Source of the DNA: Escherichia coli
GTDB taxonomy: Bacteria; Pseudomonadota; Gammaproteobacteria; Enterobacterales; Enterobacteriaceae
Assembly: GCF_003334815.1 (NCBI RefSeq)
Contig: NZ_QOWO01000001.1
Length of the DNA stretch: 64,000 nucleotides
Strand: one strand, 5' to 3'
Shown: one piece after another, positions 665 through 39,230 of the stretch
Layout of the letters: every line of letters begins with the position of its first letter
How positions within the stretch are numbered: the stretch's first letter is position 1
Notes under the pieces: model-generated
What the model saw: the letters and a program-made list of their open reading frames with translations, nothing else
What the model was told of the DNA's origin: nothing
The model's database searches: none
Made by a program: the position numbers and the translations under genes

Positions 665-1852
<1,188 letters not shown>

Positions 1853-2818
1853 TCATTCGCCTGCGCGGGGTTGCGATACCACCGTTGTATGCTTACGTAA
1901 TCCGCCCCAAATACGATGACCAATGGCGGAATACATCGCGCCCGCAACCACGACAAACGCACCGAGATAACCTAAAAGGTTTAACATCGGTCTGGCGAAG
2001 AAATCGGGCCAGGCCAGTGATAAAAGATCTGAAAAAAACAGCGTAAACAGTGGGGTGAGCGTGATGATCGCGCTCACCTGCGCTGCCTGCCAGCGAGCCA
2101 TCGCTTCCGCCAGGGCGCCATATCCTACCAAGGTATTCAGTCCGCAAAAAATTAAACATGCGAGCTGCCAGTGGCTAAGCTGCGCTATCACTCCAGGCTT
2201 TGCCAGAGGGAAGAGCGCAATTGTACATAAAGTGTACAGTAAAAACAGGATCTGCGGTGAGGCCAGCCGACGCAATAAAACCTTTTGCGCCACGCCATAA
2301 CTCACCCAAACCGTCGCCGCACCGACCCCAAAGATAACTCCCCAGGTGTAATCGGTGAGCTTTGTAAATATCTCGACCAGACTGGTGTTAAAAAACATCA
2401 CCAGGCCGCTCAGGAGCATCAATGCCCCTACAACCTGAGTGCTGCGCATTTTCTCTTTGAGGATAAATACGCTGGCAACCATCATGCCAACTGGCGAGAG
2501 TTGCCCAATCACCTGCGAAGCGGTCGGACTCAGGTATTGCAAGGATGAGCTGAACAGGATGAAGTTCCCAAACAGCCCGGCGGTCGCCACTGCCAACAAA
2601 ATCAACCAGCGTGGCTTACGAAACACGCGTAATGGCGGCAACCTCTTCTTCACCGCAAGAATGGCACCCAGGCCAATACTCGCCATCAAGAAACGGTAAA
2701 ACACGATTGTCGGAGGTTCCATCACCTCCAGCACCTGCTTCATTGCGATTGGCAACGCCCCCCAGCAAATTGCTGTGGTGAGCGCCAAAAGAATGCCAAT
2801 GCCTGCCTGCTGCTTCAT
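1853..2818 (-). CDS. yhbE: EamA/DMT-family inner membrane transporter
   Basis: 321-aa hydrophobic multi-helix ORF in the conserved position between obgE and rpmA. Confidence 0.85.
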   Translation of the reverse strand: MKQQAGIGILLALTTAICWGALPIAMKQVLEVMEPPTIVFYRFLMASIGLGAILAVKKRLPPLRVFRKPRWLILLAVATAGLFGNFILFSSSLQYLSPTASQVIGQLSPVGMMVASVFILKEKMRSTQVVGALMLLSGLVMFFNTSLVEIFTKLTDYTWGVIFGVGAATVWVSYGVAQKVLLRRLASPQILFLLYTLCTIALFPLAKPGVIAQLSHWQLACLIFCGLNTLVGYGALAEAMARWQAAQVSAIITLTPLFTLFFSDLLSLAWPDFFARPMLNLLGYLGAFVVVAGAMYSAIGHRIWGGLRKHTTVVSQPRAGE

Positions 2819-30699: not shown

Positions 30700-30714
30700 G
30701 CGAGGTAACAATGA

Positions 30715-30739
30715 ATTCGCCAGACTGTGTCTGGCGAAT
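30715..30739. repeat. 25-bp palindrome attcgccagac-tgt-gtctggcgaat; member of the CAGAC-N-GTCTG palindrome family
   Basis: Read directly; perfect 11-bp arms around a 3-nt centre, 16 bp after the gltD stop. Confidence 0.7.
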
Positions 30740-31258
30740 CAAATTACTGACGAAGTGCGCGTTGTTTTCTGGCAAATGCGGCATGAGCGTTTGACCTTTC
30801 CTATAATAGGGATAATTTTCAATAAATTGTGCTTTGTTCACCAAGTCTGATGAGTGAAGCACATCAAGCAATTTCTCATTTACAATCCGTCTCAATTACT
30901 TGTTAACACCTCTGACAATACCGATTCTGCAAGCTATTCAGTCTTTTCATTCCATGTAAATTGTCTCGATATTAATATACAAAATATGAATATAAAAAAC
31001 CAATATATTATCCTTAATTATCTATATATTTTCCTATTTTTCAGCGCAAACATTCATGTAATGAATAATTGTCACCACAAACCACCTCACCAGCACCTTA
31101 TTATTCACATGATCGTAACTATAAAATTCATTAAATAAATACATCCCAGCAAGTTGGCTATTTCTGAACGAGTTATTTATTTACATTCACAAACAGATAT
31201 ATATACTGCTTCAGCTTTTTATTTTAAAAAATAAATTTGTTATTAAGGATATGTTCAT

Positions 31259-32023
31259 ATGTTTTTCAAAAAGAACCTCACAACAGCTGCTATTTGTGCA
31301 GCACTTTCTGTTGCAGCATTCAGTGCCATGGCAACAGATTCAACTGATACAGAATTAACTATCATCGGCGAGTATACCCCTGGTGCATGTACCCCAGTTG
31401 TTACGGGCGGCGGCATTGTTGACTATGGGAAACATCATAACAGTGCGCTGAATCCGACCGGTAAAAGTAATAAACTGGTTCAACTGGGCCGCAAAAACAG
31501 CACATTAAATATAACCTGCACAGCACCAACGCTAATTGCTGTAACCTCCAAGGATAACCGTCAGTCGACCATTGTAGCGTTAAACGACACATCCTATATT
31601 GAAAAAGCTTATGATACTCTCGTAGATATGAAGGGAACGAAAAACGCCTTTGGTTTAGGTTCTGCGCCTAATGGACAAAAAATTGGCGCTGCATCCATTG
31701 GTATTGACAGGTCTAATGGTGGGATTCACGCGGCGGACGATACAGGTGAAATTCCTGTCGACCTGATTCAAACTGACCACTGGTCAGCAGCGACCCCCAC
31801 ATGGAAAGCCTCATCTAATGGCGCATTCTGCTCGCTGACAAGTTGCTCAGCAATCGAGCGCGGTTATTCTGTTGCAAAAACAGGGGAACTGACACCTGTT
31901 GCCATTACAGCGGTCACCTTCCCGTTACTGATTGATGCTGCGGTAAATGACAATACTATTCTTGGTTCTGATGAAACGATCAAACTGGATGGTAACGTCA
32001 CTATCAGCGTTCAGTATTTATAA
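31259..32023 (+). CDS. gltF: Fimbrial-subunit-like secreted protein GltF
   Basis: 254-aa ORF with a signal peptide; paralogous to YhcF (shared C-terminal LDGxxxISVxYL). Confidence 0.9.
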   Translation: MFFKKNLTTAAICAALSVAAFSAMATDSTDTELTIIGEYTPGACTPVVTGGGIVDYGKHHNSALNPTGKSNKLVQLGRKNSTLNITCTAPTLIAVTSKDNRQSTIVALNDTSYIEKAYDTLVDMKGTKNAFGLGSAPNGQKIGAASIGIDRSNGGIHAADDTGEIPVDLIQTDHWSAATPTWKASSNGAFCSLTSCSAIERGYSVAKTGELTPVAITAVTFPLLIDAAVNDNTILGSDETIKLDGNVTISVQYL

Positions 32024-32194
32024 GAACTTGTAATACAGTTTTTATTTTTACGCATTAACCAGTTAGCTATAACTCGGACAGATTATGCCCTATGACATGG
32101 TCTGTCTTAATCAATCTCATCGCAAACAGTGCATAACATATATTAACAATATGTTTCTGCGTTATTTATCATTATTACAGGAGTTTTAATTTAA

Positions 32195-32869
32195 ATGCTC
32201 AGACACATTACATTCACTGTATTTATAACAACATCAATGAATACCTTAGCCACAGGGATGGTTCCTGAAACATCAGTATTGCTGGTTGATGAAAAGCGTG
32301 GTGAAGCTAGTATTAATATTAAGAATACAGATGATCATCCTTCATTGCTTTACACCACCATTGTTGATTTGCCTGAAAGCAATAAATCAATTCGTTTAAT
32401 CCCGACTCAGCCCGTTATTCGTGTTGAAGCCGGTCAAGTACAACAGGTTCGATTTTTACTTCAGGCGACTGTTCCTCTGCAATCAGAAGAGCTGAAACGC
32501 GTAACGTTCGAAGGTATTCCACCAAAAGATGACAAGAGCAGCAGAGTTACTGTTTCAATTCGTCAGGATCTACCTGTACTGATCCACCCGGCTTCCCTGC
32601 CGGAAGAGCGAGAGACCTGGAAATTCCTGGAATGGCGTAAAAATGGCGACCAAATTGAGATTAGCAACCCCAGTAATTATGTCGTTCGTATGACCTTACA
32701 ATTTAAAACGCTCCCTTCAGGAAAAACGGGGGCTATAAATAAGACCTATTTTCTACCACACACCAGTACAACTACTGCATTAACAAACGCTACGGATACA
32801 AAAGTCGAGTTTTACCCAGCCAGCCGATATGGTTATCGCGGTAATAAATATGTCACTGACTTAAAATAA
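32195..32869 (+). CDS. yhcA: Periplasmic fimbrial chaperone (PapD-like)
   Basis: 224-aa ORF with signal peptide and chaperone fold motifs. Confidence 0.9.
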   Translation: MLRHITFTVFITTSMNTLATGMVPETSVLLVDEKRGEASINIKNTDDHPSLLYTTIVDLPESNKSIRLIPTQPVIRVEAGQVQQVRFLLQATVPLQSEELKRVTFEGIPPKDDKSSRVTVSIRQDLPVLIHPASLPEERETWKFLEWRKNGDQIEISNPSNYVVRMTLQFKTLPSGKTGAINKTYFLPHTSTTTALTNATDTKVEFYPASRYGYRGNKYVTDLK

Positions 32870-32889
32870 CTTTGCCTGGAGCGACAAGG

Positions 32890-35271
32890 ATGTTAAAAAA
32901 AACGTTACTGGCCTACACCATTGGTTTTGCCTTTTCTCCCCCAGCCAATGCAGATGGTATAGAGATTGCCGCTGTTGATTTTGATCGGGAAACATTAAAA
33001 TCACTAGGTGTAGATCCTAATATATCGCATTATTTTTCCCGTTCAGCCCGTTTTTTGCCAGGTGAATATTCACTGATAGTATCAGTAAATGGCGAAAAAA
33101 AAGGCAACATTGCTACGCGCTTTGATGAAAATGGCGACATTTGTCTTGATCAGGCATTTCTGCAACAAGCCGGTTTAAAAATTCCTTCTGAAGAAAAAAA
33201 TGGCTGTTACGACTATATATTGTCCTACCCGGGTACCACAATCACACCATTACCTAACCAGGAAGCGTTAGATATTATCGTTTCACCACAGGCGATCATT
33301 CCCATAGGGTTGGATCTCACAAACGCAGCAACTGGTGGAACAGCTGCGCTGCTAAACTACTCTCTGATGAGCAGCCGTGCAGAATTTTCTAATGGGAGTT
33401 CGGACTACTCCCAGGCTGCACTTGAAGGTGGGATTAATATTAATGACTGGATGTTACGCAGCCATCAGTTCCTTACACAAACAAATGGCACATTCAGTAA
33501 CCAGAACTCGTCAACCTACCTTCAACGTACCTTTACAGATCTTAAAACACTCATGCGAGCAGGTGAAGTTAACCTCAATAATAGCGTGTTGGAAGGAGCC
33601 AGTATTTACGGTATCGAAATCGCACCGGACAACGCATTGCAAACCAGCGGCAGTGGTGTGCAAGTTACTGGTATAGCCAACACCTCTCAGGCTCGTGTCG
33701 AGATTCGTCAACAAGGAGTTTTAATTCATTCCATTCTGGTTCCTGCGGGCGCATTCACTATCCCTGATGTACCTGTTCGCAATGGTAATAGTGATCTTAA
33801 TGTCACCGTTGTCGAAACAGACGGTAGTTCGCACAACTATATTGTTCCCTCCACCCTGTTTAATCAGCATGTAGAAAGCTTCCAGGGTTATCGCTTCGCG
33901 ATAGGGCGGGTAGACGATGACTATGACGAATCACCTTGGGTAATTAGTGCATCGAGCGGATGGAATCTGACACGCTGGAGTGCAATGAACGGCGGCGTTA
34001 TCGTAGCAGAAAATTATCAGGCGGCATCAATCCGGTCGAGTCTGGTTCCCCTGCCCGATTTAACAGTGAGCAGCCAAATTAGTACATCGCAGGATACGAA
34101 AGACTCACTGCAAGGACAGAAATATCGTCTTGACGCGAACTACAATCTCCCATTTTCACTTGGGCTAACAACCAGCCTCACTCGATCTGATCGCCATTAT
34201 CGCGAACTGTCTGAAGCGATTGATGATGATTATACCGATCCGACTAAAAGCACTTATGCGCTTGGTTTAAACTGGTCTAACTCCATTCTGGGTGGTTTCA
34301 ACATCAGTGGCTATAAAACATATAGTTACGACGGTGACAATGACTCAAGCAACCTTAATATTAACTGGAACAAAGCGTTCAAACACGCCACGGTTTCCGT
34401 CAACTGGCAGCATCAACTTAGTGCTTCAGAAAATAATGAAGACGATGGTGATCTGTTCTACGTCAACATCAGTATTCCATTTGGCAGATCAAACACCGCC
34501 ACACTGTATACTCGCCATGACGATCATAAAACCCACTATGGTACTGGTGTCATGGGAGTCGTCTCAGATGAGATGTCCTACTATGTGAATGCTGAACGAG
34601 ATCACGACGAACGTGAAACGAGCTTGAACGGCAGTATCAGTTCCAATCTCCATTACACCCAAGTCAGCCTTGCCGCAGGAGCAAGCGGCAGTGATAGCCG
34701 TACTTACAACGGTACGATGTCAGGTGGTATTGCCGTACATGATCAGGGAGTGACCTTTTCACCGTGGACTATCAATGACACTTTCGCCATCGCAAAAATG
34801 GATAACAATATTGCAGGTGTCAGAATTACATCTCAGGCAGGCCCAGTATGGACAGATTTTCGGGGTAATGCCGTCATTCCATCAATCCAGCCGTGGCGAA
34901 CATCAGGAGTTGAGATCGATACCGCCAGCTTGCCAAAAAATGTCGATATCGGTAACGGCACAAAAATGATCAAACAAGGCCGTGGTGCAGTAGGGAAAGT
35001 CGGATTCAGTGCGATAACACAACGCCGTGCATTACTCAATATCACACTTTCCGACGGCAAAAAACTGCCCAGAGGCGTTGCGATTGAAGATAGTGAAGGC
35101 AACTATCTGACAACATCAGTGGATGACGGTGTTGTATTCCTCAATAACATCAAACCGGACATGGTGCTAGATATAAAAGATGAGCAGCAATCATGCCGTA
35201 TTCACCTTACATTCCCAGAAGATGCACCAAAAGATGTGTTCTATGAGACAGCAACAGGAGAGTGCCAATGA
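32890..35271 (+). CDS. yhcD: Outer-membrane fimbrial usher
   Basis: Trimmed to MLKKTLLAYTIG... (793 aa); ATG confirmed at 32890. Confidence 0.9.
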   Translation: MLKKTLLAYTIGFAFSPPANADGIEIAAVDFDRETLKSLGVDPNISHYFSRSARFLPGEYSLIVSVNGEKKGNIATRFDENGDICLDQAFLQQAGLKIPSEEKNGCYDYILSYPGTTITPLPNQEALDIIVSPQAIIPIGLDLTNAATGGTAALLNYSLMSSRAEFSNGSSDYSQAALEGGININDWMLRSHQFLTQTNGTFSNQNSSTYLQRTFTDLKTLMRAGEVNLNNSVLEGASIYGIEIAPDNALQTSGSGVQVTGIANTSQARVEIRQQGVLIHSILVPAGAFTIPDVPVRNGNSDLNVTVVETDGSSHNYIVPSTLFNQHVESFQGYRFAIGRVDDDYDESPWVISASSGWNLTRWSAMNGGVIVAENYQAASIRSSLVPLPDLTVSSQISTSQDTKDSLQGQKYRLDANYNLPFSLGLTTSLTRSDRHYRELSEAIDDDYTDPTKSTYALGLNWSNSILGGFNISGYKTYSYDGDNDSSNLNINWNKAFKHATVSVNWQHQLSASENNEDDGDLFYVNISIPFGRSNTATLYTRHDDHKTHYGTGVMGVVSDEMSYYVNAERDHDERETSLNGSISSNLHYTQVSLAAGASGSDSRTYNGTMSGGIAVHDQGVTFSPWTINDTFAIAKMDNNIAGVRITSQAGPVWTDFRGNAVIPSIQPWRTSGVEIDTASLPKNVDIGNGTKMIKQGRGAVGKVGFSAITQRRALLNITLSDGKKLPRGVAIEDSEGNYLTTSVDDGVVFLNNIKPDMVLDIKDEQQSCRIHLTFPEDAPKDVFYETATGECQ

Positions 35272-35813
35272 AACGGATAATAACAGGATGCCTGCTGCTG
35301 AACTTCGCCATGGCCGCTCAGGCAGAGTGTAATATCTCCAGTAGCATACAAAATATCGACTATGGCAAACGAAGTGCTGCCATGCGCCAAGTTGACCGGG
35401 GTAAAACAACACAATTAGCAGACAGAACAATCACGCTGGTAATGCAATGCGATCAGGACGCTCATATTCGTGTTCAGTTGAATACCGCTAATATTTCCAA
35501 CAACGGATTTGGATTTGGCCCGAATGGTTCATTAAATCTGATCGCCAGCGATGCATTTTCAGGTAGTAACAATCTCGACCTGGCGTTAGCCAGTGGCAAA
35601 AATGACAATCCGGGCAGCACAGGAACAGCATCAATTAGTACTTCCCCCAATAATTGGCTGGTGTTTATGCAAAATGGTCAAGAAGTGGTAATTGATAGCG
35701 GTAAAAGCGTTAGCCTCACACTGACAATGGCTCCAGCTTTTAAGGATGAAGGGGAACTAACCGACATGACAGATATTACAGGCAATCTGACGGTCCTGGT
35801 GGAGGCAAAATGA
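35262..35813 (+). CDS. yhcE: Fimbrial-cluster secreted protein YhcE (intact, 183 aa)
   Basis: Uninterrupted ORF with a signal peptide overlapping the yhcD stop; I recall this gene as IS5-disrupted in K-12 MG1655. Confidence 0.7.
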   Translation: MPMKRIITGCLLLNFAMAAQAECNISSSIQNIDYGKRSAAMRQVDRGKTTQLADRTITLVMQCDQDAHIRVQLNTANISNNGFGFGPNGSLNLIASDAFSGSNNLDLALASGKNDNPGSTGTASISTSPNNWLVFMQNGQEVVIDSGKSVSLTLTMAPAFKDEGELTDMTDITGNLTVLVEAK

Positions 35814-36526
35814 ACAATGTAAAATTACTGATTGCCGGAAGTGCCTTTTTTGCCATGTCAGCGCAAGCCGCTGATAGAGTATCAATTGACGTTAAGGTGA
35901 CTCTGGAAGCTGCAGCTTGTACTCCAATACTAAGCAACGGCGGAGTTGTTAACTTCGGTAGTCATTCAGTCAATAGACTTTCAACGCAGCACTACACACA
36001 GATTGGAACACGTAATATTAATATGACTATAACTTGCGAATCCGCTACCGGCATTGCGATTACCGCTCGTGATACACGAATGGATAGTATGACCACCGGA
36101 AAAGATAGTGGGGGTCAGAGTGGTGTAAAATATACCTTAAATGGCGGAGGTTATATTAGCCAGACAACGCGCTTATTCGGCTTAGGGAAAACAAAAGATA
36201 ATAAAAATATCGGTAGTTATGCCGTGTTAATTGATAGCAACAACATTAGTGCCAGCAATGGTAGCCAGACGTTAGCTGTATCAATAGCAGGTGCAGATGC
36301 CGTCATAACAGGGCAAAAAAGAGCATGGCAAACGCTCACCGCTTATCCGCTTGCAGTCGATCAAAGCTATTATTACACCTTTGTAAAACCAGGTGAAACA
36401 ACCCCAACTCCTGTAACGAACGCCATTATACCGCTTCAGGTGAGCGCATCTATCGCGAATGATTTAGGCGGTTCAGAAAAAATCGAACTTGATGGGAAAG
36501 CTGTGATAAGCGTAGTCTACTTGTGA
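35810..36526 (+). CDS. yhcF: Fimbrial-subunit-like secreted protein YhcF
   Basis: 238-aa ORF with a signal peptide; paralog of GltF. Confidence 0.88.
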   Translation: MNNVKLLIAGSAFFAMSAQAADRVSIDVKVTLEAAACTPILSNGGVVNFGSHSVNRLSTQHYTQIGTRNINMTITCESATGIAITARDTRMDSMTTGKDSGGQSGVKYTLNGGGYISQTTRLFGLGKTKDNKNIGSYAVLIDSNNISASNGSQTLAVSIAGADAVITGQKRAWQTLTAYPLAVDQSYYYTFVKPGETTPTPVTNAIIPLQVSASIANDLGGSEKIELDGKAVISVVYL

Positions 36527-36710
36527 TAACAATGCCGGACAGGAGTACTATCAGGCATTCGTTTTATACGATCGGTTAATGTTTCAGGAAAGCTCTTCGC
36601 ATATCTTGGGGAAAGTAAATGTAATACGCTGTTCTTAATTGTTCAGTGCTCACCCCCCAGAGTATAGCTCATTCCATTATTCAACTTAGCTCCATATAAA
36701 GGGACAGATA

Positions 36711-37838
36711 ATGGAATCGCTCTCAGAAGGAACCACAGCAGGCTACCAGCAAATCCACGACGGTATTATTCATCTGGTCGATAGCGCCCGGACGGAAACG
36801 GTACGTAGCGTTAACGCGTTAATGACCGCGACGTACCAGGAAATTGGCCGACGAATTGTCGAATTTGAACAAGGTGGCGAGGCCAGGGCTGCGTATGGTG
36901 CGCAGCTAATCAAGCGACTATCAAAGGATTTATGTCTAAGGTATAAGCGTGGGTTCTCTGCAAAAAACTTACGCCAAATGAGGCTTTTTTACCTCTTTTT
37001 TCAACATGTTGAAATTCGCCAGACAATGTCTGGCGAATTAACACCATTGGGAATTCCGCAGACACCGTCTGCAGAATTCCCATCGGCAAAGATTTGGCAG
37101 ACGCTGTCTGCCAAATCTTTCCCCTTGCCCAGGTCCACCTACGTCCGTTTACTTTCCGTTAAAAACGCTGACGCCCGCAGCTTTTATGAAAAAGAGACGC
37201 TCCGCTGTGGCTGGTCTGTTCGCCAGCTAGAGCGGCAAATTGCGACCCAGTTTTATGAGCGGACACTACTGTCACATGACAAATCAGCCATGCTGCAACA
37301 ACACGCTCCTGCCGAGACGCATATTCTTCCGCAACAGGCGATACGCGATCCCTTTGTGCTCGAATTTCTGGAATTGAAAGATGAATATTCAGAATCCGAT
37401 TTTGAGGAGGCGCTGATCAACCACCTGATGGATTTCATGCTGGAACTTGGGGATGATTTTGCCTTTGTTGGTCGGCAGCGAAGGTTACGCATTGATGACA
37501 ACTGGTTTCGTGTCGATCTGCTGTTTTTCCACCGCCGTTTACGCTGCCTGCTAATCGTCGATCTAAAAGTGGGCAAATTCAGCTATAGCGATGCCGGACA
37601 GATGAATATGTATCTCAACTACGCCAAAGAGCACTGGACGCTACCGGATGAAAATCCGCCCATCGGTCTGGTTCTCTGTGCAGAGAAAGGAGCCGGAGAA
37701 GCGCATTATGCTCTGGCAGGTTTGCCTAACACCGTTCTGGCAAGCGAATATAAGATGCAACTACCTGATGAGAAACGACTCGCAGATGAACTCGTTCGAA
37801 CACAGGCGGTGCTAGAGGAAGGCTATAGACGCCGTTAA
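36711..37838 (+). CDS. yhcG: YhcG-family (DUF1016) protein, PD-(D/E)xK nuclease-like C-terminal domain; function unknown
   Basis: 375-aa ORF; the C-terminal segment (...FAFVGRQRRLRIDDNWFRVDLLFFHRRLRCLLIVDLK...) fits a PD-(D/E)xK-type core by recall. Confidence 0.85.
   Translation: MESLSEGTTAGYQQIHDGIIHLVDSARTETVRSVNALMTATYQEIGRRIVEFEQGGEARAAYGAQLIKRLSKDLCLRYKRGFSAKNLRQMRLFYLFFQHVEIRQTMSGELTPLGIPQTPSAEFPSAKIWQTLSAKSFPLPRSTYVRLLSVKNADARSFYEKETLRCGWSVRQLERQIATQFYERTLLSHDKSAMLQQHAPAETHILPQQAIRDPFVLEFLELKDEYSESDFEEALINHLMDFMLELGDDFAFVGRQRRLRIDDNWFRVDLLFFHRRLRCLLIVDLKVGKFSYSDAGQMNMYLNYAKEHWTLPDENPPIGLVLCAEKGAGEAHYALAGLPNTVLASEYKMQLPDEKRLADELVRTQAVLEEGYRRR
37013..37119. repeat. Three tandem palindromes (37013-37039 perfect 27 bp; 37050-37080, 31 bp with 1 mismatch; 37089-37119 perfect 31 bp) inside the yhcG coding sequence
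   Basis: aattcgccagaca-a-tgtctggcgaatt; ggaattccgcagac-acc-gtctgcagaattcc; aagatttggcagac-gct-gtctgccaaatctt, all read directly. Confidence 0.75.
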
Positions 37839-37853
37839 TTTCAGCGGTTTCGA

Positions 37854-37878
37854 ATTCTGCAGACAGTGTCTGCAGAAT
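37854..37878. repeat. 25-bp perfect palindrome attctgcagaca-g-tgtctgcagaat between the convergent yhcG and yhcH stops
   Basis: Read directly; same CAGAC-N-GTCTG core and GAATT arms as the intragenic copies. Confidence 0.75.

Positions 37879-37897: not shown

Positions 37898-39230
<1,333 letters not shown>

Follow-up and report, generated by a model that had tools for sequence, protein, structure and literature searches.

A palindrome within the DUF1016 gene yhcG and its probable extragenic duplicates in Escherichia coli

Between gltD and nanQ (yhcH), Escherichia coli carries a short palindrome not only inside the coding sequence of yhcG but also outside any gene, which raises the question of what the extragenic copies are and how they came to lie there. 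The window, the whole stretch of E. coli DNA that was analysed (64,000 nucleotides), holds two such copies, here called pal1 and pal5, together with three copies inside yhcG. We propose, with a probability of about 0.6, that pal1 and pal5 are Escherichia-specific duplicates of the palindrome inside yhcG, that this palindrome is an element of the whole DUF1016 family, and that its copies mark the endpoints of deletions and replacements at the locus.

Five palindromes in and around yhcG

The gene yhcG (positions 36,711–37,838, plus strand) is present as a three-repeat allele of 375 amino acids that encodes DUF1016_N and a YhcG_C PD-(D/E)XK nuclease, and it is a PADLOC candidate (PDC-S02). The PDC-S02 profile matched the whole protein with E = 2.8e-131, and the Pfam families PF17761 and PF06250 matched with E = 1.3e-36 and E = 1.6e-56, respectively. 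Within the gene, on the plus strand, unit 1 (37,013–37,039) reads AATTCGCCAGACA-A-TGTCTGGCGAATT and encodes I-R-Q-T-M-S-G-E-L, unit 2 (37,049–37,081) reads GGGAATTCCGCAGAC-ACC-GTCTGCAGAATTCCC with a single C.A mismatch and encodes I-P-Q-T-P-S-A-E-F, and unit 3 (37,085–37,123) has 18-nt arms that are 94% complementary and encodes I-W-Q-T-L-S-A-K-S. The cores, at 37,020, 37,059 and 37,098, recur with a period of exactly 39 bp (13 codons), and the units are in frame in the yhcG ORF and separated by 12-nt spacers. YhcG lengths of 349, 362 and 375 amino acids correspond to one, two and three units. Outside the gene, pal1 (30,715–30,739, no strand assigned) has 11-nt arms, ATTCGCCAGAC and GTCTGGCGAAT, around a TGT loop, and pal5 (37,854–37,878, plus strand) reads ATTCTGCAGACA-G-TGTCTGCAGAAT; with its 5' flank, pal5 forms a 43-nt stretch (37,836–37,878, plus strand) that begins at the yhcG stop codon. 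The distance in the window sequence is 16 nt from the gltD stop codon to pal1 and likewise 16 nt from the yhcG stop codon to pal5, which agrees with the placement of both copies just 3' of a stop codon in an initial annotation of this DNA.

All five copies match the 16 fixed positions of ATT-N3-CAGAC-N3-GTCTG-N3-AAT and form one family, as had been suggested from their shared core. Their N3 triplets pair at 3/3, 3/3, 2/3, 3/3 and 3/3 positions, and the units are 25–39 bp long, with AT-rich outer arms (ATT...AAT) around the CAGAC/GTCTG core in pal1 and pal5. The 25-nt pattern ATTNNNCAGACNNNGTCTGNNNAAT was observed five times in the window where 0.04 occurrences are expected, bearing out the claim of five related, non-identical copies within about 7 kb; CAGACNNNGTCTG was likewise observed five times (0.02 expected), and a search for ATTNNNCAGACNNNGTCTGNNNAAT with up to two mismatches gave no additional site in the 64 kb. 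As RNA, the five copies fold into hairpins with dG values of -15.6 to -24.1 kcal/mol and z-scores of -4.1 to -7.7; no shuffle folds as well as pal1 (-17.9 kcal/mol) or pal5 (-15.6 kcal/mol). Both intergenic palindromes are real. The sequence is native E. coli, so that the EcoRI and PstI sites are natural and the copies are not a cloning artefact, a point on which the initial annotation was right. It was also right in setting them apart from REP/BIME, ERIC and CRISPR repeats: the MG1655 annotation has no feature at the pal1 or pal5 site, and Rfam gave no match to the palindromes.

Structural alleles of the gltD–nanQ interval

Complete E. coli genomes (5,426) were surveyed with GCC-type and TGC-type 37-mers, both strands being counted. 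This survey found 2–4 places per genome for the GCC-type and 1–6 for the TGC-type query, almost all of them chromosomal (all TGC-type places; 2 of 12,521 GCC-type places were on plasmids). In E. coli the palindromes are confined to the gltD/yhcG/nanQ locus and are not a dispersed repeat family. The initial annotation erred in implying a dispersed intergenic repeat; the copies are locus-confined and appear to derive from the yhcG coding palindrome. Uniqueness to this locus and absence from other strains, which had been named together as counterevidence, came apart, since the copies are unique to the locus and are present in most genomes (5,119 and 4,431 of 5,426 for the two queries).

Three structural alleles were distinguished. 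Allele A (gltD-pal1-gltF..yhcG-pal5-nanQ) occurs in 1,236 genomes, allele B (gltD-yhcG-pal5-nanQ) in 3,140 and allele C (gltD-one palindrome-nanQ) in 946. In allele A, the gltF-yhcA-yhcD-yhcE-yhcF block (30,700–36,585, plus strand) takes the place of the usual terminator of gltD; pal1 is found 11 nt in from the left end of the block, whose right edge is without a palindrome. Restricted to alleles A and C, pal1 is 6 kb from yhcG in the window and is the sole palindrome remaining in allele C, where the single palindrome is a mosaic. The 3' flank of nanQ (37,898–38,362, minus strand, convergent with yhcG) immediately adjoins the palindrome on its right in all alleles that keep one there (A, B, C and that of E. 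albertii).

The corresponding region of Salmonella, Citrobacter (C. koseri) and Pseudocitrobacter is arranged as gltD-yhcG(-nanQ) with internal palindromes only, and by this comparison the extragenic copies appear to be Escherichia-specific. The gene itself is syntenic and vertically inherited across the Enterobacteriaceae, and in other genera the copy inside it is the ancestral one. Together with 17 nt of 5' flank, pal5 agrees with the Pseudocitrobacter internal unit at 37 of 43 positions; the 43-nt stretch is paralogous to the segment inside the gene that encodes Y-F-Q-R-I-E-I-L-Q-T-V-S-A-E, which it repeats in frame, and pal5 is in frame with yhcG, the read-through variant P0021 running on past the stop codon. 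The arms of pal1 have the same sequence as those of the final internal unit in Pseudocitrobacter yhcG and in the E. coli allele of 382 aa, with homology between pal1 and yhcG ending at about 29 nt. Both extragenic copies read I-[RL]-Q-T-V-S-[GA]-E-S (pal1, I-R-Q-T-V-S-G-E-S).

In E. albertii, the nanQ flank is joined to a hybrid palindrome whose left arm is that of an internal copy and whose right arm is that of pal5, the remnant of a deletion between the two. In the fEC.1 type, a gene replacement begins exactly at the right edge of unit 3, and both the O157 frameshift and the 2-bp LSPA-6 allele fall at a deletion junction beside a palindrome; certain deletion endpoints are likewise beside palindromes and not inside them. 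The copies are thus endpoints at which intervening DNA is lost or replaced, giving the structural alleles of the gltD–nanQ interval, and in E. coli they mark where this region was repeatedly deleted and rebuilt. Shared junction sequences, rather than a phylogeny, suggest that the alleles arose in the order B, A, C. This polymorphism and the family-wide occurrence of the palindrome were overlooked in the initial annotation, whose interpretation is partly supported overall.

The palindrome in the DUF1016 family

A scan of one genome per species resulted in at least 120 loci with at least 170 sites. In 87 sites the unspecified triplets pair along their whole length, against a chance expectation of about 1.6%, and of the 94 sites inside DUF1016 ORFs, 93 are in the same single frame. 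For an unbiased sample, 80 DUF1016 genes were picked via nuclease-domain motifs only; a palindrome score of at least 8 at the same position was found in 57 of the 80, compared with 2 of 78 in a same-size control window. Stem sequences vary from gene to gene yet covary strongly among DUF1016 genes of many phyla, including Archaea, with a covariation score of 0.546 against 0.178 for shuffles (0 of 500 reached 0.546) and at most 0.143 for slid controls. The innermost A/T "pair" gave no covariation, and among sense-strand mismatches G.T (20) is no commoner than A.C (32). On these comparisons, a palindrome at this position appears to characterise DUF1016 genes as a family, in Bacteria and Archaea alike, an unexpected result that reaches beyond the locus; we found no description of a DUF1016-embedded palindrome. 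pal1 and pal5 share with it the fixed pattern, the self-complementary N3 triplets, the I-x-Q-T-x-S reading and the linkage to yhcG.

Additional copies are present in certain DUF1016 genes in the 5' UTR, in the 3' flank or as tandem arrays. Several clostridial genes have a copy between the -10 box and the ribosome-binding site, a Myxococcales gene has one 16 nt past its ORF, and in a Rhodothermales MAG the gene is preceded by a tandem array of about 38 x 78 bp. In a Christensenellaceae genome, identical direct repeats of 48 bp, each holding the palindrome, lie on either side of a DUF1016 gene that has housekeeping genes as neighbours, and two genes (L010 and L099) have external copies and no internal one. 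Flank copies amount to about 5% in the unbiased sample, and this rarity suggests that extragenic copies arise as by-products from time to time and do not regularly belong to the system. Orphan perfect palindromes were also seen at loci without a DUF1016 ORF.

The residues encoded by the palindrome form the lowest-confidence loop of the YhcG structure model, within a linker of hypervariable length; the palindrome, read in the frame I-x-Q-T-x-S-x-x, is predicted to encode part of a disordered loop in the DUF1016_N linker. The nearest solved folds to the YhcG nuclease domain are NucS/EndoMS, and the domain was previously grouped near YraN-like proteins and archaeal Holliday-junction resolvases (PMC1189080). 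Tentatively, the family-level palindrome may act in cis, as a hairpin, a cruciform or a two-fold symmetric duplex that its NucS/Holliday-junction-resolvase-like host nuclease recognises, in which case it could serve autoregulation or be a built-in substrate of the nuclease.

Origin of the extragenic copies and comparison with known systems

According to the explanation we favour, the home element would be a palindrome of 25–29 bp with the frame signature I-x-Q-T-x-S-x-x that codes for the loop of the DUF1016_N linker and is kept palindromic by compensatory change in DUF1016/YhcG genes of Bacteria and Archaea. In Escherichia, the unit would have been amplified in tandem within yhcG (one to three copies, with a period of 36 or 39 bp) and also copied to the yhcG 3' flank as pal5, with a further copy, pal1, where the inserted gltF-yhcADEF block begins on the left. 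The rearrangements may have proceeded by short-homology or hairpin-assisted replication slippage, or by illegitimate recombination between self-complementary and mutually similar copies, and template-switch "perfecting" of quasipalindromes would hold each copy symmetric.

If pal1 and pal5 were instead primarily RNA elements, that is, terminators or 3'-stabilising hairpins for the gltD and yhcG/nanQ transcripts, their likeness to the intragenic copies would be secondary. Their stable hairpins and their position 16 nt past a stop codon, repeated in the Myxococcales gene, accord with this, and a curated Term-seq "primary" 3' end of gltD at MG1655 3,360,660 (PMC7815308, supplementary file 1) corresponds to position 30,743 of the window (plus strand), 4 nt past pal1. 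On this published evidence, pal1 now marks the gltD mRNA 3' end, suggesting a 3' hairpin co-opted in place of the lost canonical terminator. The 3'-end role put forward in the initial annotation is therefore supported for pal1, but both copies lack a U-tract (their tails read CAAAUUAC and CUUUAAAA) and neither was called in a terminator scan of both strands. A normal GC-rich terminator follows gltD in allele B and in other genera, pal5 is accompanied by 17 nt of in-frame 5' flank from within yhcG, and sense-strand mismatches lack a G.U excess. The constant location in the family is inside the ORF, and the curated Term-seq data have no 3' end entered at the internal copies or at pal5 and no entry for the 3' ends of yhcG or nanQ, yhcG appearing poorly expressed. 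The extragenic copies probably did not arise as terminators, and a primary RNA function is improbable. Doubtful, too, is a reading of the palindromes as attC-like or att-like sites of site-specific recombination around a mobile DUF1016 cassette, with allele C as the empty site. The change from pal1...pal5 to a single palindrome does resemble excision, and the Christensenellaceae direct repeats and the orphan palindromes would fit; however, the locus has no evident recombinase gene among its ORFs and annotated genes, yhcG is inherited vertically in synteny, the gltF block has no palindrome at its right edge, the deletions end at varying positions, few flank copies occur in the unbiased sample, and the perfect stems have neither attC-type extrahelical bases nor a GTTRRRY core.

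The palindrome could also be without function, a quasipalindrome that perpetuates itself in a linker tolerant of mutation; the Q-T-x-S codons would have seeded it, template switching would maintain its symmetry, and the extragenic copies would be rearrangement debris. The encoded loop is disordered and hypervariable, mismatches show no strand bias, copies tend to duplicate and delete, and template-switch perfection of quasipalindromes is a mutational process reportedly established in E. coli by Ripley in 1982 and by the Lovett laboratory. We nevertheless consider this unlikely, as one position keeps a palindrome with entirely different stems across Bacteria and Archaea whereas the control window in the same genes does so in only 2 of 78, and as external copies persist at the two genes without an internal one and lie between the -10 box and the ribosome-binding site in several clostridia. 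Five chance insertions of a dispersed REP- or MITE-like mobile repeat would yield related, non-identical copies within 7 kb, but this is very improbable and already contradicted by the single locus per genome in 5,426 genomes, the single conserved reading frame (93/94 sites), the ancestral intragenic copy in other genera and the lack of an MG1655 repeat annotation at either site.

The duplicated yhcG palindrome resembles several known systems in part. Like REP sequences with their RAYT (TnpA-REP) genes, it is a short palindromic unit tied to one nuclease gene family, with copies that flank the gene, vary in number and keep the stem structure while the sequence varies. REPs, however, are extragenic and dispersed in hundreds, and RAYTs are HUH Y1 enzymes, whereas the yhcG element lies inside an ORF in 1 to 5 copies at one locus and belongs to a PD-(D/E)XK nuclease. 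REP/BIME was ruled out by the copy number (2–4 and 1–6 places per genome versus hundreds of dispersed extragenic copies), and the REP/BIME consensus, a GC-rich imperfect palindrome of about 35–40 nt, is not matched by perfect stems with AT-rich outer arms. Units of 25–39 bp rule out ERIC/IRU, an imperfect palindrome of about 127 bp; a CRISPR array is ruled out by the 12-nt spacers, the in-frame position inside an ORF and the single extragenic copies, and no cas genes are named among the ORFs and annotated genes at the locus. An integron attC site or gene cassette was rejected on the perfect stems and missing GTTRRRY core, with no integrase named among the same genes.

With intrinsic terminators and 3'-stabilising hairpins, the extragenic copies share a stable stem-loop after a stop codon and, at pal1, an RNA 3' end 4 nt downstream; unlike them, they have no U-tract, an AT-rich outer stem, a hairpin derived from coding sequence and a usual family position inside the ORF. 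Type III toxin-antitoxin systems (ToxIN) also combine a nuclease gene with tandem arrays of a short structured unit, adjacent to the gene or within it (3 x 39 bp for E. coli yhcG), but ToxN is an RNase of the Kid/MazF-like kind whose repeats encode no protein and lack the palindromic form of the yhcG element, and the DUF1016 palindrome is usually a single in-frame copy. ToxI-like antitoxin repeats were rejected, the gene encoding DUF1016_N and a YhcG_C PD-(D/E)XK nuclease with the repeats in frame inside its ORF; only the Rhodothermales array resembles the ToxI layout of repeats upstream of the gene. The C-box operators of restriction-modification controllers are two-fold symmetric sites with a nuclease gene, as are the copies between the -10 box and the ribosome-binding site in some Firmicutes. 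C-boxes, with the consensus GACT-N3-AGTC, lie upstream of the gene and not inside it, whereas differing arm sequences, each copy self-complementary, coexist at the yhcG locus.

In typing E. coli O157:H7 lineages, the LSPA-6 yhcG marker is this same polymorphic stretch, and what distinguishes its 392- and 394-bp alleles is a deleted AT at the junction next to the palindrome; the typing literature consulted treats it as an anonymous indel and mentions neither the palindromes nor their wider distribution. A mutational parallel exists with the template-switch and slippage hotspots at E. coli quasipalindromes, where short inverted repeats turn perfect and deletions and duplications have their endpoints. 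Single-event perfecting of this kind is suggested by allele C's mosaic palindrome and by the perfect, differing arms of neighbouring units. Such hotspots are incidental, whereas the palindrome here is conserved at one position of a gene family in two domains of life.

Palindrome copies at the gltD-yhcG locus

Five copies of the palindrome are present in the window. The two extragenic copies lie at the positions reported in the initial annotation, each 16 nt 3' of a stop codon: pal1 (30715–30739, ATTCGCCAGAC-TGT-GTCTGGCGAAT) follows gltD, and pal5 (37854–37878, ATTCTGCAGACA-G-TGTCTGCAGAAT) follows yhcG, 19 nt from the convergent gene nanQ (yhcH). The three intragenic copies (units 1–3 of yhcG) are spaced exactly 39 bp apart, in frame, and encode the peptides IRQTMSGE, IPQTPSAE, and IWQTLSAK. 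The core CAGACNNNGTCTG occurs five times in the 64-kb window compared to 0.02 expected occurrences, and the 25-nt pattern ATTNNNCAGACNNNGTCTGNNNAAT five times compared to 0.04; tolerating two mismatches in the latter resulted in no extra sites in the 64 kb. All five copies fold into strong hairpins. A cloning artefact, against which the initial annotation had argued, was rejected, as the DNA is native E. coli and the same sequence is found in thousands of genomes. When the 1.4-kb yhcG-nanQ stretch was searched, pig and human isolates were 100% identical and K-12 derivatives 99.9% identical. The window's yhcE (35262–35813) does not contain the IS5 that interrupts the MG1655 gene, showing that the window is not MG1655.

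The distribution of the palindrome was then determined with 37-mers, each palindrome being counted on both strands. Of 5,426 complete genomes, 5,119 contain a 37-mer around the GCC-type copy (GCC-type and TGC-type denote classes of palindrome arm), each at 2–4 places; the pal5 37-mer occurs at 1–6 places per genome, and all inspected matches are at the gltD/yhcG locus. No repeat is annotated at the pal1 or pal5 site in the curated MG1655 record, and Rfam gave no match to the palindrome, even at E ≤ 10. With few places per genome, no further site in the window, and no annotation, the palindrome is not a REP, ERIC, or CRISPR element, as previously judged, nor is it a dispersed intergenic repeat, as had been implied.

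A role for the extragenic copies as hairpins at RNA 3' ends had also been suggested, and this is supported for pal1. The curated primary 3' end of the MG1655 gltD mRNA (3,360,660; PMC7815308) corresponds to window position 30743, 4 nt past pal1, whereas published Term-seq data list no 3' end for pal5 or the internal copies. Both extragenic copies were rejected as canonical terminators because a terminator scan found no U-tract at either. As the gene order of the window and K-12 (allele A, below) is missing the canonical gltD terminator, and given the published 3' end, we conclude that pal1 serves as the gltD 3' hairpin, which identifies the structure ending the K-12 gltD mRNA. Two other transcript features have been mapped nearby: a region of Rho-dependent termination ~80 nt inside yhcG (window ~36790, MG1655 3,367,906; PMC7815308 supplementary file 2) and, at the yhcF-yhcG spacer, the stationary-phase ncRNA G0-10703, which diverges from the 5' region of yhcG and is antisense to it (PMC7815308; PMC7967276).

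Structural alleles of the gltD-nanQ interval

The interval between gltD and nanQ exists in at least five forms with junctions at palindromes. Allele A, present in 1,236 genomes, reads gltD, 11 nt, pal1, gltF yhcADEF, yhcG, pal5, nanQ. Allele B (3,140 genomes) consists of gltD, an ordinary GC-rich terminator, yhcG, pal5, and nanQ, and is probably ancestral because this order is also found in Salmonella, C. koseri, Pseudocitrobacter, and a cryptic Escherichia clade. In allele C (946 genomes), yhcG is absent and gltD is separated from nanQ by 67 nt containing one perfect palindrome (GAATTCGCCAGACAGTGTCTGGCGAATT). Alleles A and C have a 12-nt junction (gaggtaacaatg) in common, suggesting that they are sister forms, and the palindrome in allele C has the left flank of pal1 and the right flank of pal5, as would be expected if all DNA between pal1 and pal5 had been lost.

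Three further variants also have a junction at a palindrome. The E. albertii type strain retains the 5' third of the gene, followed by a hybrid palindrome fused directly to the nanQ flank, with a left arm (AAATTGGCAGAC) like that of an internal unit and a right arm (GTCTGCAGAATCT) like that of pal5. In fEC.1-type E. coli, foreign DNA begins exactly after the third internal palindrome and stands in for the 3' two-thirds of yhcG and pal5, which is lost; this replacement (locus L212 of E. coli fEC.1, 1650–2120) comprises ~470 nt with a 101-aa ORF annotated as "transposase". The third variant, a one-unit allele from the cryptic clade, combines a left arm resembling that of unit 1 with the type of right arm and flank seen in unit 3. 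Unit number varies as well: YhcG is 349, 362, or 375 aa long with one, two, or three palindrome units, respectively, and a second yhcG allele class has a unit period of 36 bp. In O157:H7 and MA11, yhcG is frameshifted at a deletion junction adjoining the remaining palindrome; the AT difference between these two genes is that between yhcG alleles 1 and 3 of the LSPA-6 typing literature, which explains the nature of this marker in the O157:H7 scheme. In E. coli, the palindrome copies are thus the junctions of deletions, replacements, and copy-number changes. They explain a structural hotspot of the chromosome and account for the presence or absence of yhcG and the gltF-yhc fimbrial block. These rearrangements may have arisen because short repeats that resemble one another and form hairpins undergo slippage or recombine illegitimately. 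Each copy would be kept symmetric by template switching at quasipalindromes, which is an established process in E. coli. The interval 3' of yhcG appears to be a general insertion hotspot in Enterobacteriaceae; in Salmonella enterica, the 6 kb past yhcG (locus L003:7218–13071) occupies the place of E. coli nanQ and encodes a permease for cytosine/purines, an amidohydrolase, and a fimbrial operon of the chaperone-usher type.

Outside Escherichia, only the internal palindrome is found. Salmonella and C. koseri carry ATTCAGCAGACACTGTCTGGTGAAT, and Pseudocitrobacter yhcG contains two perfect units, one TGC-type and one GCC-type. All examined Escherichia alleles that retain the yhcG 3' end have pal5. 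The 43 nt from the yhcG stop codon onward (TAATTTCAGCGGTTTCGAATTCTGCAGACAGTGTCTGCAGAAT) match at 37 of 43 positions when aligned to the Pseudocitrobacter internal segment encoding Y-F-Q-R-I-E-I-L-Q-T-V-S-A-E, and a natural read-through variant of YhcG exists, its protein end given as 23 residues, from which we conclude that pal5 is a paralogous copy of part of this internal segment of yhcG. The arms of pal1 are identical to those of the last internal unit of a 382-aa allele, including the following GAATC; homology of pal1 to yhcG stops at about 29 nt, and pal1 now borders the gltF block.

A palindrome shared by DUF1016 genes

The palindrome was also examined across DUF1016, the gene family of yhcG. 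One genome per species was scanned for 16 fixed bases, resulting in at least 120 loci and at least 170 sites; by our own arithmetic, about 69 matches would be expected by chance in 298 Gb. The listed loci span Bacteria (Proteobacteria, Firmicutes, Bacteroidota, Actinomycetota, Verrucomicrobiota, Planctomycetota, Acidobacteriota, Myxococcota, Cyanobacteria, and others) and Archaea (Methanoperedens, Methanoregula, Methanomicrobiales, and Woesearchaeota). Among 170 listed sites, the unspecified arm triplets are fully complementary in 87 (1.6% expected) and complementary at two of three positions in 63. YhcG-homologous ORFs contain 94 of the listed sites, 93 of them in the frame in which ATT encodes Ile. 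As this sample is biased by the search pattern, an unbiased set of 80 DUF1016 genes on viral contigs was assembled using only two peptide motifs of the C-terminal nuclease domain, and prevalence was taken from this set. In 57 of the 80, the best palindrome score in the linker window was at least 8, always at +235 to +340 nt, compared to 2 of 78 for a control window of equal size in the nuclease domain.

The stems differ wholly between genes (CAGAC, GAGAC, CACGC, GAACAC, CGACAC, CCACTC, CACC, CAAC, and others). Among 50 distinct 35-mers, two-sided changes support 13 pairs, and the covariation score is 0.546; shuffles give 0.178, none of 500 reaching the observed value, and slid registers give no more than 0.143. 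No covariation is seen at the innermost A/T positions, which are statistically independent. At the protein level, the segment is a linker that is hypervariable in length and sequence, and in the AlphaFold model of YhcG it forms a loop (residues 97–114) that includes the lowest-confidence residues of the protein. The right arm extends into conserved L-S-W-S-H codons, and the left arm is its mirror. A by-product of a conserved protein motif was therefore rejected, as the stems are fully different yet palindromic and the encoded peptide is not conserved. Rather, the motif in the protein is set by the palindrome: residues covary as R/G-E, L/A-E, W/A-K, and V/A-Q since their codons have to pair with each other, a plain example of a protein motif imposed by a constraint on the nucleic acid. 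The palindrome is a hallmark of the DUF1016 gene family.

Copies outside the ORF are rare in the unbiased viral-contig sample (about 5%) and take several forms. In four clostridial DUF1016 genes (L076:7503, L088:1670, L010:8078, and L056:550), a copy is at a 5'UTR or operator position, flanked by a TATAAT -10 box and the RBS; its arms are the same as those of the internal copy in two or three of the four genes, and the internal copy is absent in one. One copy, with 23-nt arms, is found 16 nt past the ORF of a Myxococcales gene, and the 3' copy of one viral-contig gene has arms of its own (CTCTCAAC). In viral contig L188, an inverted-core palindrome (GTCTG..CAGAC; ATTTCGTCTGACAGCAGACGAAAT, 1384–1407) precedes a DUF1016 ORF by 21 nt; the arms of the palindrome inside this ORF are unrelated to it. 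In a Christensenellaceae MAG, identical 48-bp direct repeats containing the palindrome (L099:1137–1184 and 2323–2370) flank a DUF1016 gene that has no internal palindrome and is inserted between housekeeping genes (dnaJ/nucleosidase and zapA-like), a layout resembling a cassette. A Rhodothermales MAG (JAJECE010000060.1) contains about 38 tandem 78-bp repeats, each with a palindrome (ATTCTACAGACACCGTCTGGAGAAT), at L126:2433–5471, directly upstream of a DUF1016 gene (1201–2373, minus strand); across the array, the ILQTVSVES frame stays open for 1,013 codons, and the neighborhood is defense-type, encoding a DUF1156-like methylase and a helicase. Perfect palindromes of the family type were also found in loci with no DUF1016 ORF (L125:9398–9812, L050:4089–4136, L101:3739, L022:3055, and L026:2904), in apparently non-coding DNA; a Caldilineaceae MAG has three of them inside 400 bp, and in a Legionellales MAG two abut each other. 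These orphans may be remnants like E. coli allele C.

Possible roles and related systems

YhcG is the PADLOC candidate PDC-S02. NCBIfam and PDB sequence searches gave no match to YhcG; the closest solved structures to its nuclease domain are NucS/EndoMS, and the domain was earlier placed beside YraN-like proteins and archaeal Holliday-junction resolvases (PMC1189080). DUF1016 genes are over-represented in type I R-M and inversion-prone loci (PMC9881135). More than 25 profiles represent PDC-S02; many have an end at residue ~100–120, and many span only residues ~6–110 or begin at ~120–200, suggesting that DUF1016 genes are often split, or annotated as fragments split, at the palindrome.

Selection on an mRNA-specific hairpin would predict an excess of G.U pairs on the sense strand; the mismatches show no such excess, with 20 G.T against 32 A.C, leaving this explanation unsupported. 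The argument that a palindrome perfect to its center must act as duplex DNA was withdrawn in turn, given the independence of the innermost A/T positions, and a stem with an R-N-Y triloop and a two-fold symmetric duplex fit the data equally well. An operator for a sequence-specific dimer is weakened by the five copies in one locus, whose arm triplets differ although each copy is self-complementary. The most likely family-level reading, to which we assign a probability of about 0.3, is that the palindrome is a cis element, or cognate nucleic-acid partner, recognized by its own DUF1016/YhcG nuclease, the two possibly constituting a self-contained gene plus hairpin/cruciform module conserved in Bacteria and Archaea. 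Recognition by the gene's own product is suggested because a gene for a structure-specific nuclease holds a cruciform- or hairpin-forming site, with copies in the 5'UTR, ORF, or 3' flank. The NucS/resolvase-like enzyme would act by binding or cutting the palindrome embedded in its own gene, which could throttle expression, arm a defense or suicide response, or move and reshuffle the gene. If so, the E. coli extragenic copies, tandem arrays, and orphan palindromes would be footprints of nuclease activity. The DUF1016 nuclease family is very common in defense islands, type I R-M loci, ICEs, and phages, and a palindrome in a disordered loop offers a mutable handle for learning what these proteins do.

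Both the E. coli sequence and the indel marker in yhcG have been described before. For what the palindromes are, for their part as breakpoints, and most of all for a palindrome that covaries throughout the family, no description was found in Rfam, in the MG1655 annotation, or in the literature retrieved under the names YhcG, DUF1016, and PDC-S02. The closest known arrangements are REP-RAYT and ToxIN, in which a nuclease gene is likewise paired with cognate palindromic repeats. The logic is comparable, but the DUF1016 case differs from both in enzyme fold, in the location of the repeat within the coding sequence, and in copy number.
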